Below, piece after piece: positions 3,394-35,309 of a DNA stretch of 41,685 nucleotides. The notes under the pieces are model-generated. The model searched no databases and was not told the DNA's origin. It saw only the letters and a list, made by a program, of their open reading frames with translations. This stretch comes from a virus (taxonomy: Duplodnaviria > Heunggongvirae > Uroviricota > Caudoviricetes): IMG/VR virus record IMGVR_UViG_2541047729_000013, one strand, 5' to 3'. The translations under genes and the position numbers were made by a program. Each line of letters opens with the position of its first letter. Position 1 is the first letter of the stretch.

Positions 3394-6300
3394 TTAACGT
3401 TCTTCCAGAGACTGAACCCGCTCTTTTATCTTATCCATTTCTCTGCGCTGCCATGCTGCCTCGATATAGAATAAGAGATCAGGTCTGACCCCCCATCTAG
3501 ATCCTGCTGGCGTTATTTCAACGCGCTCAATGATGTCTTCTATTACCATCACTGGATTATCATCCTCATCAACAATGATGCTCCCGTCATTATCAGTCAG
3601 CGGCATTTCCCTTTGGCCAGTAATGACGTCATCATATACTGCGGGATAATCGTCATAGCAAAGAAAGGCATAGCGGCATGTTGTGCTTTCTTCTTCCATG
3701 AGTCCGTGAGAAATAAGAACATCACGAAGTTGCTGCGCGATTACACCATGATGTATCCTCGCCCCTTCTTCCCCCTTTATAGCGACAGCGTTCAGCCATT
3801 TATAAGCGATATACCTGACGTCACCCCAGGCATCCAGCAATGCTTCGTCAGGAGAGACCGGCTCTGTCTTTAATGTTCCGTCACTGGTAACCACAGGATT
3901 GGAGCCAAGATAAACTGTCGAGAACCTGTTTCCCGGACCACCAAGAGCATTTACATTATCAAGATAAGGTTTAACATCTCCGTTCTCAAAAAGATGTTCG
4001 AGTGCGTTATATACCGCGCGACGTGGAGTACTGCTTCCGGAACCATGCAACGTTATCATTGCACCATCTGCTGAAGACGTTGTTTCACCGCCGCTAACGA
4101 TTAATCTCTGAGCGGTAACATCATCAGACGGTACTTTCTTCGCAATAATGGCGTAATTACCCTCAAGTTTGACTTCCGCGCGAACTTGTCCTGATGTACC
4201 TGCATGGACAGTCAGTGACTGGACGGCAACATCATCTGTGAAATCAACGGGTACAGGAACCGTCCTCACGCCTGACGTCGACATAAAAGTAGGAAGCGTT
4301 CTGTTAGGAGTGGCTCCGTAGACAAAATCCCTTGAAACAAATTCTTCCTGTTTAATTTTCACCCTGAAACAATACAAATCAGCCGGGTGACCATCGTGAA
4401 AATAAGGATATTTTCTGTTGTTATCCCCTATGCTCCATGGGTTTAGAAAGTCTTCCCCACCGAAAATGTAGTACAGCCAGTTGTCTTTGATACAAACTGA
4501 ACCAACACCAACCGCAGAGTTAACTATTCCGCCCTGATAAATCTGATCAGTAACATTAACCCACTCTACATTATCCAGACTCCACTCATTGACGTTAACT
4601 CTGGTCATAAATGTTCTTGGATAATTTCCTGCATAACGGTTATCAGGTTCTCCTCCTTCCCACTCACCAAATGCGCGCTCACTGCCAAAAATAATCAGCT
4701 CATCGCCAACTTTGGCAAAAGGAAGGTTTGAGTGATGAACATTATTTGGGAAGCGAAGAGAATTCCATGATGTACCTAAATCAGAGCTTCTGTGCAATGA
4801 ACTACCGGGTTGAGTACTTAATGTCCCCCTGGTCGTCAGATACAGAATGCCATCATAATATTTTACACATGGCTCAGATGCATTCGCCTCATATTCTGCA
4901 GGTATGCGTCTGCGAACAAAGCTACCAGGAGAACCGAAAGCATCAGAGAAATAGAGTATCCCAAGCTCGCGTGGACCAATATCACCATTATGGTAGCCAA
5001 CAGCAAAACTGTTATCGCTAATCGTCGCAAAACTGTGAATCTCAGTAACAGGAGTGCTTCCGTCAACAAAAGAAGGAATAGTTCCAAGACTGGTTTTTCT
5101 CCATGGTGACGAGTGAAATGATGTACCAAAACTCCAGTATCTACCCTCGTTATTCTGATCCACATCCTGGGTATTTTGCGTCGTAACTGTAAAAGTATTT
5201 TTATCAATAACAGTAGTCACCGTCATATTCCCGGTAACACCTGTAACACCAGAGTTTGAGAAGTTGACAAAATCACCAGCAAATAATCCGTGATCAGTAA
5301 TGCGAATATAAGCGACTTGCTGATTTGCTGCTTTCGTTATACCACCATAAACGCGAAGGCTGCGACTCATTGGGCGATCCCACAACTCTGCAACCTGCAG
5401 TTTATTTCCGCTCACGGTCCGCGTCTCAATTACAGCAAAAAGGCGATTTCTGACAACCCCCATACTCATGCAGTGATAGTTAACTGTGGGATAGTTTTCA
5501 TGTAAATCTGTAAGCCATTCCGGCGTTGTCCAGGTCTTCCCGTCATCTCCTGAGCGAACCCATGCAACATGGAGGTTATTTACACCATGGCGGTCTCCAG
5601 CCATAAAAGGCGCATAGATGACATTGTCATATACAAACGTTTTATCCTGCGTCCAGGCGTTGTACCACGGTGTATCTGTAATTTTAAATAACTCTCCCTG
5701 GATAAAATCTTCAGAAGCATAAAAAAGAGGCTGGCCCGGTATTCTCTCAAATAAAAAACGAGCATTTTTAAATCGACTGACATCCGGAAGAGTTGATACT
5801 TTAAAAGTAAGCCCTAATCCGTCAATTTTATAACCTGGAGATGAGGCTTCAAGGCACGCGCTTATTGCAGTGGAATCGTCATTTATACCATCACCAACAG
5901 CTCCAAAATCTTTGGGGCTAATAGCATCACGCATTTTATCCTGGAACGTTCGGTACACAGCCCCAGAACCATACTGAATAAACCAACCAAAACCACCAAC
6001 AACCCCGGAGATTGCAGCATCGACATAATTACGCATTGAGCGATTATTTACAGCGTCCTGCTCAAATGATGGATCTGCAAGGTTAGAAATTTTGTTTTGC
6101 TTTGCATCGTAATATTTTGCAAGCAAAGATGGTTTCATCAATGCACGTCTGAACCACCCAAAACATTGCTGGATCAGCATCGTCAGGTAGTCAAAGGCAT
6201 CTTCATGCACTTCGGGGAAAAATTTTCCCTGATTGCGAAGGTCTGTCTCCTGCACTACATCAAGCACACGATCTATCGTAATTCGCCATCCAGTAGCAAG

Positions 6301-6513
6301 CGGAGACGGAAGAACCACAGAACCGCCACTATAAGTGCCCGCCCCAGTTACCGTATAACCGGTATCCAGAACCAATTCTGTTACGTTTCCGTTCAGGTCA
6401 GACACCTGAACAACCAGGTCTGATTTTCTGAAAACTCGAAAAGTATACGGAAACGATGTCGTAACGCCGTTACCGGTGTATTCGTTGTGGTCAACTTCGG
6501 TTGAGACCGTCAT
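3394..6513 (-). CDS. Tailspike / tail fibre with sialidase-like beta-propeller and C-terminal intramolecular chaperone domain
   Basis: 1039 aa; N-terminus MTVSTEVDHNEYTGNGVTTSFPYTF typical of enterobacterial phage fibre adaptor domains; two Asp-box motifs (SGDDGKTW, SSDLGTSW); C-terminal segment ending ...REMDKIKERVQSLEER resembles the autoproteolytic chaperone of endosialidase-type tailspikes; RBS GGAGAT upstream. Confidence 0.8.
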   Translation of the reverse strand: MTVSTEVDHNEYTGNGVTTSFPYTFRVFRKSDLVVQVSDLNGNVTELVLDTGYTVTGAGTYSGGSVVLPSPLATGWRITIDRVLDVVQETDLRNQGKFFPEVHEDAFDYLTMLIQQCFGWFRRALMKPSLLAKYYDAKQNKISNLADPSFEQDAVNNRSMRNYVDAAISGVVGGFGWFIQYGSGAVYRTFQDKMRDAISPKDFGAVGDGINDDSTAISACLEASSPGYKIDGLGLTFKVSTLPDVSRFKNARFLFERIPGQPLFYASEDFIQGELFKITDTPWYNAWTQDKTFVYDNVIYAPFMAGDRHGVNNLHVAWVRSGDDGKTWTTPEWLTDLHENYPTVNYHCMSMGVVRNRLFAVIETRTVSGNKLQVAELWDRPMSRSLRVYGGITKAANQQVAYIRITDHGLFAGDFVNFSNSGVTGVTGNMTVTTVIDKNTFTVTTQNTQDVDQNNEGRYWSFGTSFHSSPWRKTSLGTIPSFVDGSTPVTEIHSFATISDNSFAVGYHNGDIGPRELGILYFSDAFGSPGSFVRRRIPAEYEANASEPCVKYYDGILYLTTRGTLSTQPGSSLHRSSDLGTSWNSLRFPNNVHHSNLPFAKVGDELIIFGSERAFGEWEGGEPDNRYAGNYPRTFMTRVNVNEWSLDNVEWVNVTDQIYQGGIVNSAVGVGSVCIKDNWLYYIFGGEDFLNPWSIGDNNRKYPYFHDGHPADLYCFRVKIKQEEFVSRDFVYGATPNRTLPTFMSTSGVRTVPVPVDFTDDVAVQSLTVHAGTSGQVRAEVKLEGNYAIIAKKVPSDDVTAQRLIVSGGETTSSADGAMITLHGSGSSTPRRAVYNALEHLFENGDVKPYLDNVNALGGPGNRFSTVYLGSNPVVTSDGTLKTEPVSPDEALLDAWGDVRYIAYKWLNAVAIKGEEGARIHHGVIAQQLRDVLISHGLMEEESTTCRYAFLCYDDYPAVYDDVITGQREMPLTDNDGSIIVDEDDNPVMVIEDIIERVEITPAGSRWGVRPDLLFYIEAAWQRREMDKIKERVQSLEER

Positions 6514-6990: not shown

Positions 6991-7497
6991 TTAACAGTCG
7001 TAAAATTCCGGGTCCCACAAACTTGCATCGCGCGGCATGGATTCTAAATTTTTCAGCCGCAAAATTCTGTCACACTCGACAAGAAGTTTTTGTTTTTGTT
7101 CGTCAATTTCTACTTTTTTGTGTGCTGGCTCATCCCAGTAATCCAGAAGAAACGCATGTCGCTCAGACGTTACAAGATAAATCACATACACATCACTGGT
7201 TGGTATTTTTTTATGCTTGTTGGTGGTCTTGTCTTTCTTCCCGGATGCCCAGTTTTTCCAGCATTGTTCCGTACCGCTCTCACCAAACTTGTCAGTATAG
7301 TTTCCGATGTTTACGTGAACGTGGCGTATGTGATATTCCAGCATCTCTTTCGGTGGATCCCGAAACAGAGTGTCCTTTCCGAAATCCTTATGATGACCGT
7401 AGCGCCAGTGATCTATGAACGCGTTTTTGATAGGTATTAGCTCAGGGTCCTTCCCAAAAATTCCAGGGTGAACCAACCCCTGGAATTTATTCAGCAT
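6991..7497 (-). CDS. YafO-like putative toxin (ribosome-dependent mRNA interferase family)
   Basis: Start set at internal ATG (MLNKFQ...), overlapping the upstream gene by about 11 nt; segments PGIFGKD, HIRHVHV and VYVIYLVTSERHAFLL resemble recalled YafO segments PDIFGRD, HIHLANEN and HLVYCQGAFDEQAWLL. Assignment is from memory and needs an HMM search. Confidence 0.4.
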   Translation of the reverse strand: MLNKFQGLVHPGIFGKDPELIPIKNAFIDHWRYGHHKDFGKDTLFRDPPKEMLEYHIRHVHVNIGNYTDKFGESGTEQCWKNWASGKKDKTTNKHKKIPTSDVYVIYLVTSERHAFLLDYWDEPAHKKVEIDEQKQKLLVECDRILRLKNLESMPRDASLWDPEFYDC

Positions 7498-7942
7498 CGT
7501 CGTAGAGCTCCTGAGCCATATCTTCGGCAGTGCGTGCAAACATCCTGCGCGAGATTGCATGAGATTTCTCGACGGACATCTTTGGGACCTCATGCATAAC
7601 ATTTTTGGGAGTTGTGTAATAGCCTATTACAATTTTCACACCTGACTTATGATTAATATCAGCATAATATACTTCTTGTTCAGACGTTTCACGACGAACA
7701 TAATCTGCCAGTTTTCCACATTTAAATTCCCCTCCCTGATGTTTTAAAATCTCCTCAACTGCACTATTTTCAGTGAAATACCGAATAAGAAATTTCTGTC
7801 CAGACTCTTCAGCATGAGGTATAACAGTATTATTGGAAGCCCGAACAATGGCCTTACTCAATATTTCATGGTCTTTATTTTTTTCTGATTTCCTCAAATG
7901 CTGCATTACTGTAGCTCTCTTCGTGTTCACGGGCACCCCCAA
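7487..7942 (-). CDS. Uncharacterised protein overlapping and upstream of the YafO-like gene (candidate antitoxin or partner)
   Basis: 139-151 aa depending on start (track TTG at 7942 or ATG near 7906); acidic C-terminus AQELYDDAE; no recognisable HTH. My reading of the printed sequence near 7858-7862 gave one extra nucleotide relative to the track frame; track coordinates are used. Confidence 0.45.
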   Translation of the reverse strand: MGVPVNTKRATVMQHLRKSEKNKDHEILSKAIVRASNNTVIPHAEESGQKFLIRYFTENSAVEEILKHQGGEFKCGKLADYVRRETSEQEVYYADINHKSGVKIVIGYYTTPKNVMHEVPKMSVEKSHAISRRMFARTAEDMAQELYDDAE

Positions 7943-8038: not shown

Positions 8039-8083
8039 TTGAAATAACGTGAGTTATGCATTTATTATTACCTTTGCGGTAAA
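8039..8083 (+). promoter_or_regulatory. Candidate promoter (TTGAAA-N17-TTATTA) with overlapping ATTACC-N5-GGTAAA operator
   Basis: -35/-10-like hexamers with 17-nt spacing; operator palindrome at 8067-8083 abuts the -10; CCACATAGGG box at 8029-8038 is shared with the modules at 6580 and 26358. Confidence 0.45.
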
Positions 8084-8108
8084 TTTACATCGCACTCCTC
8101 TTGTGCCA

Positions 8109-8195
8109 TAGTAATCGGGCATTGGAAAAATCCAGTGCCGGGATTGGCGTCCCGGATTACTAAAAGGCGCATTCACCGCGCAAGCGGTTTTTTTA
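8109..8195 (+). ncRNA. Candidate small structured RNA / leader riboregulator ending in an intrinsic terminator
   Basis: Closing stem TAGTAATC (8109-8116) / GATTACTA (8155-8162) encloses two hairpins (GGCATTGGA-AAAA-TCCAGTGCC and GGGA-TTGGCG-TCCC); followed by ACCGC-GCAA-GCGGT plus T7 run (8175-8195). No ORF; 150 nt upstream of the Bro-N start. Confidence 0.3.
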
Positions 8196-8351
8196 TGCGT
8201 ATAGCACGGCCACATTCGTATTATGGTGGGCTGTGTGGGGGCACCGAAAGGTGCGCCGGGTCCTTTTAGCCGGTTACGCCAACCCTGCACAGTTCACCAC
8301 CAACCGATTGGCGTCGGTAGTGGTGATTAACCAGACTAAAAGGTAACCACT

Positions 8352-9047
8352 ATGACAGCTACAAAAAGCACGTCCATTTTTTCTTTCGAATCCCAAGCCG
8401 ATATACGGGTAATCGTCATTAATGGTGAGCCATGGTTTATCGCTTCAGATGTTTGTCGGGCTATAGGCATAGCAAATCATCGAGATGCTGTTCGAAAACT
8501 TGATGATGATGAGAAGGGCGTCGCTTCAACCGACACCCCTGGCGGTGAGCAAGAATCGATCATCATCTCCGAGTCAGGCCTCTACACACTGATCCTCCGC
8601 TGCCGCGACGCAGTGACACCAGGCACTATCCCCTACCGCTTTCGTAAATGGGTTACAGGTGAGGTTCTTCCTCAGATCCGCCGCACCGGAAGTTACATTA
8701 AAAACTCGCTCCCGCAGGAAGAACGCATAAAGATGGTTGCCGACCAGGTAGCCAACGCCACAGCATCAGCAGTGATGCAGGCAATGAAGATAGAGAACAA
8801 AACCTACAGTGCCCCACTGAAGCCCGGCTACCGCAGCCTGATTCATTCGCCGTCTGGTGTTCTCGGCCTGACGGAGAACTCACTGCTGATGAATCTGCTG
8901 AACCAGTTACAGGAAGACGGGCACGACGTATCGGGCGCGGCGGCGGAGCTGACCACCATGTTCTGCTACATCGTCGGTGTGAGCAAGTGCCTGCGTGATA
9001 TCCAGACGCACGCGGAGTACATCAACGACAAGGCTGGGTTCTTCTGA
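8352..9047 (+). CDS. Bro-N domain antirepressor-like protein
   Basis: N-terminal hallmark IRVIVINGEPWFIASDVCRAIGIANHRDAVRKLDDDEKGV; C-terminal about 65 aa paralogous to the 6709-6966 protein; RBS AAGGT upstream. Confidence 0.75.
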   Translation: MTATKSTSIFSFESQADIRVIVINGEPWFIASDVCRAIGIANHRDAVRKLDDDEKGVASTDTPGGEQESIIISESGLYTLILRCRDAVTPGTIPYRFRKWVTGEVLPQIRRTGSYIKNSLPQEERIKMVADQVANATASAVMQAMKIENKTYSAPLKPGYRSLIHSPSGVLGLTENSLLMNLLNQLQEDGHDVSGAAAELTTMFCYIVGVSKCLRDIQTHAEYINDKAGFF

Positions 9048-26745: not shown

Positions 26746-26822
26746 GTGGCATTAGCTCAGTTGGACAGAGCAACCGCCTTCTAAGCGGTTGGTCGCAGGT
26801 TCGAATCCTGCATGCCACGCCA
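26746..26822 (+). tRNA. tRNA-Arg (anticodon UCU), phage-encoded
   Basis: Hand-folded cloverleaf: acceptor GTGGCAT/ATGCCAC, D-stem GCTC/GAGC, anticodon stem ACCGC/GCGGT with loop CTTCTAA (anticodon TCT), T-arm GCAGG-TTCGAAT-CCTGC, discriminator G, encoded CCA. Confidence 0.85.
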
Positions 26823-34724: not shown

Positions 34725-35309
34725 ATGAAAAGTATCCAGGACGTCCGCAGGCAAAATCTCAACGACTTGATCGACCGTGAATTCAATGGTGTTCAGACGC
34801 GGATGGCTGAAAAACTTGGAACTCAGGCAAATCTGGTAAACCGCTGGGCTCTTGGCAAGAAGGTTATCGGCGACCAGGTTGCACGAAAAATTGAAGCTGC
34901 CGCCAATAAACCCCGTAACTGGCTTGATATTGATCGCTCGCTTTCTCAGGAGGGTTTTCAGCCTGTCGGCCCGAGCGATATAGGTCAGCTGGCGGCTCAC
35001 AACCTGGAACGCTGGATGAGCGAAAGCCGCGACCTTTCAACGCAGGGAAAACTACACCGCGCATCCGGCGTCGCCCAGGTGACAATCAGCCGCCTGTTAA
35101 ACAATGAGGTCAGCGTTTCCATTTCCACCCTGGAGAATGTTGCATCCGCATTCGGGCGTCACGGCTATGAATTACTGATTCACCCGCACGACCCTGCGAC
35201 CATCAACTATGATCGCTCGCGCTACGCATTGTTACCCGAAACCGAGAAAGCAAAGATCGAAAGTTACATTGAATTTGTCATCAACCAGAACGAAAAAAAC
35301 AAACAATAA
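34725..35309 (+). CDS. CI-like prophage repressor without peptidase S24 domain
   Basis: N-terminal XRE-type HTH (TRMAEKLGTQANLVNRWALGKK) and a second HTH-like segment; no Ser-Lys autocleavage motifs; divergent from the cro-like gene; followed by a terminator. Confidence 0.7.
   Translation: MKSIQDVRRQNLNDLIDREFNGVQTRMAEKLGTQANLVNRWALGKKVIGDQVARKIEAAANKPRNWLDIDRSLSQEGFQPVGPSDIGQLAAHNLERWMSESRDLSTQGKLHRASGVAQVTISRLLNNEVSVSISTLENVASAFGRHGYELLIHPHDPATINYDRSRYALLPETEKAKIESYIEFVINQNEKNKQ

Follow-up and report, generated by a model that had tools for sequence, protein, structure and literature searches.

The window analysed here is a stretch of 41,685 nt from a Caudoviricetes virus (IMG/VR record IMGVR_UViG_2541047729_000013). 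Its positions 8039-8351 form the leader of a gene for a 231-aa Bro-N domain protein (Pfam Bro-N E = 2.3e-21; PHROG 130 'anti-repressor Ant' E = 3.7e-63). The gene shares 98.5% DNA identity with ORF4 of ZX5, overexpression of which lowered the prophage titre ~1000-fold (PMC9782041). By its domain, its PHROG match and this near-twin, the Bro-N protein is an antirepressor. A search for defence systems gave no match among the four unknown flanking genes. The leader and gene carry the following features.

8039-8068, plus strand: upstream promoter-like site, TTGAAA-18-TATTAT (consensus scan, 10/12)
8068-8082, no strand assigned: palindrome TTACC-N5-GGTAA (TTACCTTTGCGGTAA), candidate repressor operator (dispersed repeats)
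8084-8112, plus strand: family-conserved promoter, TTTACA-17-CATAGT with TG upstream of the -10 (9/12 plus TG)
8119-8194, plus strand: IsrK-like leader RNA with hairpins H1 (8119-8138) and H2 (8139-8154), b1 and the terminator (Rfam isrK)
8142-8151, plus strand: a1, GATTGGCGTC, displayed by the H2 loop; complement of a' (repeat D1, inverted repeat I5)
8159-8167, plus strand: b1, ACTAAAAGG, complementary to the c4 loop b' (D3, I8)
8167-8200, plus strand: outer helix GCGCAU/AUGCGU (8167-8172 with 8195-8200) around the terminator (36/38 loci)
8175-8194, plus strand: intrinsic terminator, ACCGC-GCAA-GCGGT and seven T, with a 5-bp stem (scan, fold)
8223-8330, plus strand: 35-codon ORF through c4, counterpart of Gifsy-1 'orf45' (ORF list)
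8225-8301, plus strand: c4 antisense RNA, predicted mature length 77 nt (Rfam C4; ends placed by P1 c4, 48343-48419)
8262-8269, plus strand: b', CCTTTTAG, specificity element in the 10-nt loop of c4 hairpin 2 (complementarity)
8276-8282, plus strand: a', ACGCCAA, in the single-stranded joint of c4 (inverted repeats I5, I12)
8304-8317, plus strand: a2 hairpin with a2 (GATTGGCGTC, 8306-8315) at its tip (inverted repeat I12, covariation)
8320-8326, plus strand: GTGGTGA, able to pair with 8294-8300, the 3´ side of the c4 closing stem (covariation)
8335-8343, plus strand: b2, ACTAAAAGG, overlapping the Shine-Dalgarno sequence (D3, I9)
8352-9047, plus strand: regulated gene, Bro-N domain antirepressor, 231 aa (Pfam, PHROG)

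Two Rfam families match adjacent parts of the leader on one strand, both above their gathering thresholds: isrK (RF01394; 74.5 bits vs a gathering score of 50, E = 3e-14, model positions 1-77 at 8119-8194) and the C4 antisense RNA (RF01695; 77.7 bits vs 45, E = 1.1e-13, model positions 1-87 at 8219-8304). By these E-values, the sequence features of the leader are far beyond chance. A third family, c4-a1b1 (RF03163), fell short of its gathering score (39.4 vs 46.7 bits) although both of its hairpins are present; the deficit lies in the sequence 5´ of H1 and in H1 itself. For the immI region of P1, the same three matches were obtained in identical order (c4-a1b1 at 51.0), again with a terminator-like hairpin ahead of c4. 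An alignment of 37 loci plus P1 (alignment A1, 38 loci) is in register at the promoter, H1, H2/a1, b1, the T run, c4, a2, b2 and the ATG. Its helices are 87.7% paired overall, with changes on both sides in 232 cells vs 72 in shuffles, and the substitutions keep base pairs, not reading frames. Covariation across homologues, which the preliminary description of this leader had put forward as a check, is present for these helices, and every sequence feature listed in that description lies in 8039-8351.

The IsrK-like leader RNA corresponds in part to a 54-nt element described earlier as two hairpins within an 8-bp closing stem. The minimum-energy fold does contain this structure (hairpins 8119-8138 and 8139-8154 closed by 8109-8116 with 8155-8162), and the fold of 8075-8195 (-51.3 kcal/mol, z = -5.25) was equalled by 0 of 200 shuffles. 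Both hairpins are conserved across the 38 loci, H1 being 90% and H2 99.5% paired with compensatory changes. The closing stem was rejected as a conserved element: 49% of its cells are paired, compared with 32-44% in slid controls, and its 5´ arm is overlapped by the promoter at 8084-8112. A third stem of this type had already been called sporadic (Weinberg 2010). The 54-nt element had been proposed as the regulator. Control of the antirepressor gene by RNA stands, but its matches to isrK and c4-a1b1 identify the two-hairpin element as a leader serving as a1/b1 target or decoy, and the antisense RNA lies at 8225-8301. Hfq binding and trans activation of the downstream gene by isrK are known for Gifsy-1 only. 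The strong terminator of the earlier account was recovered at 8175-8194, with a T run that is mostly invariant in the 38 loci including P1. The short leader RNA would stop at this terminator, and only transcripts that run past it would reach c4 and the gene.

Two predicted promoters precede the leader RNA. The upstream one, the promoter noticed previously, has TTGAAA at 8039-8044 and an AT-rich -10 at 8062/8063-8068; TL-2011b and phiV10 retain its -35 and -10 approximately, around an unrelated spacer, and it is possibly the counterpart of P1 P2c4 (P51a). The second, at 8084-8112, is in register in alignment A1 with TTGAC-N17-TATAnT elsewhere in the family and with the promoter annotated in P1 at 48195-48223, and by this alignment is the homologue of P1 P1c4 (P51b). 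Transcription from it is predicted to start near G8119; in a Gifsy-1-type locus (L007), counting from the corresponding base gives back the coordinates in print. A terminated RNA of ~76 nt would be made from the conserved promoter, and the ~120 nt anticipated in the preliminary description would be reached from the upstream promoter only. In the window, a consensus scan gave no promoter-like site between the terminator and c4. We also noted that some relatives have a ~45-nt insertion with TATAAT between terminator and c4 (alignment A1).

An operator overlapping the upstream promoter had also been suggested. As a candidate for it, the repeat ATAAC-N4-GTTAT in the spacer (8044-8057) was rejected: it has a single exact copy in the window, and its four one-mismatch matches lie outside regulatory positions. 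The idea of an operator is plausible for the palindrome at 8068-8082, flanked by the upstream promoter's -10 on one side and the conserved promoter's -35 on the other and present in 14 dispersed copies within the window vs 0.75 expected by chance. In phiV10 there are likewise 14 copies, all intergenic, two of them between the repressor gene p40 and p41. The dispersed palindromes cluster around the repressor gene in both phages, and the copy at 8068-8082 probably serves as the phage repressor's operator, the product of 34725-35309 being a candidate to bind it.

The c4 region folds at -45.6 kcal/mol (z = -4.7), and the minimum-energy fold gives the architecture of the C4 family: a 17-bp closing stem encloses hairpin 1, capped by GAAA (a GNRA loop, as noted for the family), and hairpin 2, which carries loop b'; a' is single-stranded, and the 3´ tail reads ACC(A). 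Across the 38 loci the closing stem is 93% paired, hairpin 1 97% and hairpin 2 87%; the stems have many compensatory changes, and all five pairs of hairpin 1 show changes on both sides. G8225 pairs with C8298, after which comes ACCA, as at the 3´ end of a tRNA. With a long stem ending in ACCA, c4 resembles a tRNA acceptor arm, and excision by RNase P would be expected by homology with P1. What is said here of RNase P processing and of icd in P1 is background drawn from the P1 GenBank annotation and secondary citations.

The c4 words a' and b' have exact complements of 7 and 8 nt, respectively, on both the upstream and the downstream side. The b-type words had been seen in the preliminary description, which gave the repeated ACTAAAAGG and its complement correctly; the second repeat GATTGGCGTC with its complement ACGCCAA, the c4 fold, the promoter at 8084-8112 and the non-conservation of the closing stem had been overlooked. 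The P1 annotation places a1 at the position equivalent to 8142-8151. On the downstream side, the inner three pairs of the a2 hairpin are 97% paired, with both sides changed in 9 to 16 of 38 loci per pair. The b2 word contains AAAGG, 8 nt ahead of the ATG at 8352, and in most loci b2 includes or precedes GGAG/GAGG just upstream of the start codon.

These complementarities change together. The 37 loci display 37 different b' loops, and for every loop the b1 and b2 of that locus match it. Counting matches of at least 7 nt, the loop complement was found at the b1 position in 68% of comparisons within loci vs 4% across loci, and at the b2 position in 89% vs 4%. The pattern used for collecting isrK-c4 loci fixed the a' word, and the joint variation of a1, a' and a2 is seen in P1 (CTGTCAA with TTGACAG) and in the three tandem modules of L037. 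The a1b1:c4 duplex is contiguous, with an energy of -32.3 kcal/mol that was equalled by 1 of 1000 shuffles. The segment duplexes gave -16.4 (a':a1), -10.3 (a':a2) and -9.2 kcal/mol (b':b2). RNAcofold predicted no c4-target pairing, a result that says little either way because loop-loop contacts cannot be modelled. RNAcofold and whole-molecule duplexfold runs of c4 with its partners were set aside as uninformative, the shuffled controls overlapping, and energies of defined segments were used. A hairpin that presents b2 and hides the ATG (8318-8324 with 8346-8352) appears in the window fold, but is 67% paired across loci (-7.8 kcal/mol within a locus vs -7.0 across loci) and was rejected.

Collectively, these data lead us to read 8039-8351 and the Bro-N gene as an 'immunity I' module of the P1 type, in which the antirepressor is silenced by a small antisense RNA, with a probability of about 0.85. 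The P1 annotation runs operator, promoters, a1, b1, c4, a2, b2 and icd/ant. The immI regions of P1 and P7 share with the window a one-strand order of operator (a candidate one in the window), tandem promoters, two hairpins with a1, b1, terminator-like hairpin, 77-nt c4, a2/b2 and antirepressor. By sequence, the region at 8039-8351 is homologous to P1 immI over its entire length, so that the likeness to P1 c4 drawn in the preliminary description is more than an analogy. In P1, the c4 RNA is cut from its transcript by RNase P, acts in trans and gives immunity between phages, and repression by c4 has been demonstrated in P1 and P7. There are differences. P1 immI has the icd ORF, whereas the window has no ORF between b2 and the Bro-N ATG, a layout shared with APSE; unlike in P1, b2 of the window lies directly over the antirepressor gene's own Shine-Dalgarno sequence. 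The site words are TTGGCGT and CTAAAAGG here and TTGACAG and GTTAGTGA in P1; given the mismatch in both, no cross-immunity would be expected. A Bro-N protein takes the place of P1 Ant as antirepressor, the putative operator is another palindrome, and the phage is an epsilon15-like podovirus, unlike P1.

A parallel in layout is an APSE cluster (LR794149; bioRxiv 10.1101/2020.03.17.996009), which has identical gene order with an annotated isrK, a C4 with a' and b' and a BRO-N gene, and which is ~71% identical over the RNA region, though from another phage group and host. The genes downstream across the family are of antirepressor type (Bro-N, Rha, ORF6N, P22_AR_N). The isrK-orf45-anrP locus of Gifsy-1 likewise has an isrK leader, a terminator, read-through into c4 and an antirepressor-type gene (PMC4825925), and L007 aligns throughout with the window module. 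It differs in that its gene, with isrJ downstream, codes for an ORF6N protein, and in that its ORF through c4 has 45 codons and overlaps the gene start, whereas the window ORF stops 21 nt short. Once coordinates are mapped, Gifsy-1 'orf45' turns out to be the c4 RNA, and 'helix b-I' the a1:a' pairing; a c4 antisense RNA does not figure in the Gifsy-1 authors' account of the region (PMC4825925). This mapping joins two literatures that are still kept separate in the reviews consulted. The same authors called IsrK a structural homologue of seqA (PMC4825925). According to the literature, the CI RNA of satellite phage P4 is a small RNA, processed from its own operon's leader, that pairs with seqA upstream and seqC downstream; it causes premature transcription termination of replication genes, whereas the outcome in the window would be a block of antirepressor translation.

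From family membership, structures and complementarities, including their joint change across loci, we infer for this phage how start sites, terminator efficiency, processing, repressor binding and a decoy role would fit together. Transcription would begin at the conserved promoter 8084-8112, possibly also at the upstream promoter 8039-8068, and the phage repressor probably acts at the palindrome between both. Most transcripts would end at the terminator, giving the short IsrK-like RNA with a1 and b1. Read-through transcripts would contain c4, which by homology with P1 would be excised by RNase P, and its b' (CCUUUUAG) and a' would pair with b2 and a2. Since b2 covers the Bro-N ribosome-binding site, translation would thereby be blocked and lysogeny protected. 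The leader has both sites contiguous and pairs more strongly, and so could capture c4 and relieve the block. P1 icd couples translation to ant transcription. As there is no icd-like ORF here, the downstream outcome, a translation block alone or Rho termination too, may differ. A decoy of this kind was put forward for P1 in Additional file 1 of Weinberg 2010, citing Citron and Schuster 1990. In Gifsy-1, IsrK supplied in trans raised anrP translation >100-fold (PMC4825925). Of the published Gifsy-1 mutations, G28/G31 fall in a1 and C159/C162 in a' of L007. Mutations of a1 in cis made expression higher, not lower (PMC4825925), an effect that the simple decoy model does not predict.

Four other explanations were weighed against a trans-acting c4. 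The preliminary description had the words acting in cis only, with CCUUUUAG pairing with the upstream or the downstream ACUAAAAGG to hide or free the ribosome-binding site and no processed RNA acting in trans. The words do supply the regulatory pairings, and a switch confined to one transcript is consistent with the presence of all three words on it, with two more conserved helices confined to read-through RNA, and with the Gifsy-1 read-through RNA, which pairs a1 with a' and is translationally silent (PMC4825925). It is nevertheless improbable that cis pairing is all there is: the complementary word sits inside the 77-nt Rfam C4 fold with its tRNA-like ACCA end, the minimum-energy fold of the whole leader puts c4 and its targets in separate hairpins, and 37 specificities, three in tandem on one contig, make most sense for discrimination of targets in trans. 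In P1 the same fold is released and acts in trans, and the Gifsy-1 leader acts in trans as well. The model published for Gifsy-1, in which the IsrK-like RNA activates the ORF in the c4 region ('orf45'), finishing ribosomes start the antirepressor and c4 is mRNA structure, is somewhat less doubtful, though still unlikely as the explanation here. It has the experiments of PMC4825925 behind it, and the window has its 35-codon ORF from the same conserved AUG (8223), ending 21 nt ahead of the ant ATG. This ORF, however, stops before reaching the ant start and lacks a recognisable Shine-Dalgarno sequence. From the conserved AUG, ORFs of related loci run from 5 codons to at least 45, some with no stop in the compared stretch (14 codons in P1), in a frame that varies relative to the gene. 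A conserved peptide from it was ruled out by these varying lengths and frames; it has no Pfam match and is probably not a conserved protein. In Gifsy-1 itself, the a' mutants C159U and C162U derepress most strongly (PMC4825925), and double mutants that regain a1:a' but not a':a2 stay derepressed, as c4 repression predicts. The Gifsy-1 and c4 models are not mutually exclusive.

The remaining two carry very little weight. Control of the P22 sar type, also raised in the preliminary description, would require opposite-strand transcription through the ribosome-binding site of ant; sar likewise limits antirepressor translation, but is made from the strand opposite to its target. The Bro-N gene adjoins the tailspike, much like ant in P22 immI. 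Against it, consensus matching, a weak test, gave no minus-strand promoter-like site in or just downstream of 8300-8400, the leader offers a single terminator-like site on that strand, with a stem of 5 bp and a poor T run, no Rfam match of this kind was found, and the conserved structure is all on the plus strand, making this reading highly improbable. Equally remote is conservation due to small protein-coding genes (the 'similar to hypothetical protein SF0880' of the records, or a minus-strand ORF). ORFs of 35-78 codons on both strands and notes in the phiV10 and TL-2011b records speak for it. What is kept across loci, though, is base pairs and not frames, there is no Pfam match, and two RNA families match with E near 1e-13.

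Within the c4 reading, two further helices suggest more complex behaviour of the read-through RNA. The helix of 8294-8300 with 8320-8326 is 90.9% paired, with both sides changed in 39 cells vs 9.8 in shuffles and energies of -10.95 kcal/mol within a locus vs -8.11 across loci; it excludes the c4 fold and has no role in the P1 model. The outer helix around the terminator (-8.5 kcal/mol within a locus vs -6.1 across loci) is possible in read-through RNA only. We tentatively propose, as something that may well prove wrong, that the read-through transcript is a multi-fold switch and not a simple precursor, with a c4-making form (repression) and an open form from which the antirepressor is translated. 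The short leader RNA, a stronger pairing partner of c4 than the mRNA, would tip the balance. If true, this would merge the P1 c4 and Gifsy-1 IsrK/orf45 models into one mechanism and account for the higher expression from cis a1 mutations.

The c4 module at 8039-8351 is complete, real and well built, yet ordinary; the system was already known, and our findings leave the picture of how such modules work unchanged. In principle, the b' loop and a' word could label immunity specificity in a form readable from sequence, allowing prediction of which prophages silence one another's antirepressors. RNA control goes unmentioned in the study of the ZX5 antirepressor (PMC9782041). In phiV10, TL-2011b and the best eight E. 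coli genomes among the matches listed, RNA annotation is absent or the region carries spurious 'hypothetical protein' notes. E. coli IHE3034 and APEC O18 each have a copy at 99.6% identity. Similar sequence is present in 935 of 5426 complete E. coli genomes.

The leader of the Bro-N gene gave two Rfam matches over the curated thresholds, isrK at 8119-8194 (74.5 bits) and C4 antisense RNA at 8219-8304 (77.7 bits), both missed in the preliminary description, while a c4-a1b1 match at 8106-8158 fell under threshold. The module is a member of a well-known family that standard RNA family models detect. c4 is predicted to fold as a 77-nt RNA closed by a 17-bp stem (z = -4.7). The repeated 9-mer and the intervening complement that had been noted are all present, but the complement, far from being free-standing in the spacer, is part of a c4 loop. 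We also found a second repeat pair that had been overlooked, again with its complement in c4. The names of the sites follow the nomenclature of the P1 record.

8039-8068, plus strand: upstream promoter-like site, TTGAAA-18-TATTAT (consensus scan)
8084-8112, plus strand: family-conserved promoter, TTTACA-17-CATAGT (scan and alignment register)
8142-8151, plus strand: a1, GATTGGCGTC, in the loop of leader hairpin H2
8159-8167, plus strand: b1, ACTAAAAGG, directly after H2
8175-8194, plus strand: intrinsic terminator (scan and fold)
8262-8269, plus strand: b', CCTTTTAG, in the 10-nt loop of c4 hairpin 2
8276-8282, plus strand: a', ACGCCAA, in a single-stranded joint of c4
8306-8315, plus strand: a2, GATTGGCGTC, at the tip of the a2 hairpin
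8335-8343, plus strand: b2, ACTAAAAGG, over the Shine-Dalgarno sequence
8352-9047, plus strand: Bro-N gene of 231 codons, directly after the leader (8039-8351)

Scanning viral contigs with a sequence pattern yielded 77 loci that have a c4-like unit, with 37 different b' loops among them, and one locus per distinct loop was aligned together with P1 (38 sequences). Every part was in register from the -35 box through the start codon. The proposed helices were 87.7% paired, compared to 40-47% in slid controls, with 232 cells changed on both sides versus 72 in shuffles; the a2 site, too, lies in a covarying hairpin. The strongest test concerns specificity. When a locus's own flanks were searched, a complement of its loop (at least 7 nt) was found ~95 nt upstream in 68% of loci and ~50 nt downstream in 89%, whereas the flanks of other loci gave a match in only 4%. 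Both b sites change along with the loop. The a sites look invariant among the 77 loci because the search pattern fixed the a' word; P1 has another a word, with a1, a' and a2 all matching. One contig (L037:9700-11210, minus strand) has three isrK-c4-gene modules in tandem, each with its own a word and b word matched upstream, in c4 and downstream, and the three genes are close paralogues. Another locus, L059, has two modules.

The promoter-like site previously described is present at 8039-8068, but the promoter kept across the family is the one at 8084-8112. Transcription from it is predicted to start near G8119, where the isrK model begins, and would give a terminated RNA of ~76 nt; the ~120 nt proposed earlier would apply only to transcripts from the upstream site. 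The two neighbouring hairpins are closed by an outer 8-bp stem in the minimum-energy fold (-51.3 kcal/mol, z = -5.25) and followed by the terminator, as described. As a kept feature, however, the closing stem did not hold up, being unconserved in the alignment test against slid controls; its 5´ arm falls within the -10 region of the conserved promoter, and Weinberg and colleagues (2010) already describe it as an occasional third stem. In the window, a consensus scan revealed no promoter in the interval from the leader terminator to c4, and thus c4 and the antirepressor gene should need readthrough, a dependence reported for the Salmonella prophage Gifsy-1 (PMC4825925). Eight relatives (L029, L034, L041, L046, L084, L098, L114 and L121) have a ~45-nt insertion between terminator and c4 (alignment columns 148-190), with a TATAAT-like word in several; the insertion may supply a c4 promoter of its own in these relatives.

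Family membership, structure, complementarity and the joint changes of the sites across loci were observed directly in this analysis. The earlier observation is confirmed, and its interpretation was partly right. In P1 and P7, RNase P cuts c4 out of the operon transcript, and the free RNA prevents translation by base-pairing to sites a2 and b2. By analogy, the window's c4 would be processed by RNase P and would bind its own a2 and b2, blocking translation; it has the features expected of a substrate (G8225 paired with C8298, then ACCA). The short leader would compete for c4 through a1 and b1. These form a nearly continuous duplex with c4 (-32.3 kcal/mol, equalled by only 1 of 1000 shuffles), and the a2 and b2 duplexes, 19 nt apart, have -10.3 and -9.2 kcal/mol. 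The leader is probably a competitor for c4, an idea put forward for P1 in Weinberg 2010 (citing Citron and Schuster 1990). Such a role would fit the >100-fold increase in anrP translation by IsrK in trans in Gifsy-1, reported in PMC4825925.

Two further helices suggest that the readthrough RNA has alternative folds. Just past a2, GTGGTGA at 8320-8326 repeats the partner of the c4 closing stem's 3´ strand (8294-8300) and can pair with that strand instead. This helix, mutually exclusive with the c4 fold, is 90.9% paired in the 38 loci, with 39 cells changed on both sides versus 9.8 in shuffles, and its own-versus-other-locus energy contrast resembles that of the genuine c4 stem. The second, GCGCAU/AUGCGU (8167-8172 with 8195-8200), brackets the leader terminator, is possible only in readthrough RNA and has equivalents in 36 of 38 loci, including P1. 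Neither has a role in the P1 model, and the former has none in published models.

The Gifsy-1-type locus L007 (2895-3080, minus strand) carries isrK, C4 and isrJ in Gifsy-1 order, and numbering from its first isrK-match base gives every published Gifsy-1 coordinate. The c4 5´ end has two AUGs, at A107 and A119-G121; G28 and G31 fall within a1, C159 and C162 within a'. The positions changed in the published compensatory mutants, G28/C162 and G31/C159, form a1:a' base pairs, and the published orf45 begins at the conserved AUG at the c4 5´ end and traverses c4; the L007 ORF has 45 codons and overlaps the next ATG. Given this agreement in coordinates, "orf45" is the c4 RNA and "helix b-I" the a1:a' pairing, and the IsrK and c4 literatures describe the same module. 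PMC4825925 reports that a' mutants show the strongest derepression and that double mutants, which restore a1:a' but not a':a2, stay derepressed, as predicted by c4 repression. It also reports derepression by a1 mutants in cis, which is not predicted by a simple decoy model. Neither the length nor the frame of the ORF through c4 is conserved among the related loci compared, and it was therefore not counted as a coding feature in the window.

The product of the downstream gene has a Bro-N domain and matches PHROG 130, "anti-repressor Ant" (E = 3.7e-63). Overexpression of the 98.5% identical ZX5 counterpart brought the prophage titre down from 1e9 to 1e6 and reduced repressor transcription (PMC9782041). 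Across the family, the genes 3´ of b2 include Bro-N, Rha, ORF6N and P22_AR_N proteins or small proteins. P1 immI is annotated in the order C1 operator, promoters P2c4 and P1c4, a1, b1, c4 (48343-48419), a2, b2, icd and ant; it gives Rfam c4-a1b1, isrK (under threshold) and C4 in the same order as the window and also has a stem-loop with a U run between b1 and c4. No icd-like ORF was found in the window, where b2 covers the antirepressor gene's own Shine-Dalgarno sequence. APSE phages share this layout, already annotated as isrK, C4 and BRO (LR794149; bioRxiv 10.1101/2020.03.17.996009).

The epsilon15-like coliphages TL-2011b and vB_EcoP_ZX5 match the window at 98% identity from 8062 to ~9080, and phiV10 does so at 95%. 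In the deposited phiV10 (L001:3099-3166) and TL-2011b (L003:2165-3253) records, the c4 region is labeled "similar to hypothetical protein", without RNA annotation, and no feature lies under the match in the best 8 RefSeq E. coli genomes listed. Of 5426 complete E. coli genomes, 935 carry a similar sequence (96 at ≥95% identity); the module is thus widespread. It has not yet been discussed for this phage group.

An operator overlapping the promoter had also been described. The inverted repeat in the 8039-8068 spacer was rejected as an operator, being unique in the window, but a neighbouring palindrome is one of 14 copies of TTACC-N5-GGTAA (10 exact; 0.75 expected by chance).

8068-8082: palindrome TTACCTTTGCGGTAA, between the two promoters
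6618, 7943, 8068, 9114, 26409, 29547, 29565, 32306, 32368, 34270, 34607, 34655, 35367, 35429: TTACC-N5-GGTAA, 15 nt each
26746-26822, plus strand: tRNA-Arg gene (anticodon TCT), ~325 nt downstream of one palindrome copy
3394-6513, minus strand: K1 endosialidase tailspike with C-terminal chaperone domain
6991-7942, minus strand: two genes of unknown function (PHROG 1651, PHROG 9503), between the tailspike region and the antirepressor leader

The palindrome likewise occurs 14 times in phiV10, where all copies are intergenic by annotation save one pair, which lies at the small terminase gene's 5´ end; as far as checked, the window's copies lie in corresponding regions. The helix-turn-helix repressor gene is flanked in both phages by two copies immediately before its start and two just past its end. 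The dispersed palindrome probably serves epsilon15-like phages as their set of operators, similar to the scattered C1 operators of P1, and supports control of the module by the repressor, with 8068-8082 as a candidate operator comparable to the P1 C1 operator at the c4 promoters.

The two genes at 6991-7942, transcribed away from the leader, gave no Pfam or PADLOC matches; TL-2011b and phiV10 are unrelated to the window here, with similarity beginning at 8062, and the region is possibly an accessory gene cassette. Among the matches listed, the K1 strains IHE3034 and APEC O18 carry the genomic copies most similar to the RNA module, which fits the neighbouring endosialidase tailspike. Given this tailspike and these copies, the window appears to be an epsilon15-like prophage with K1-capsule specificity.
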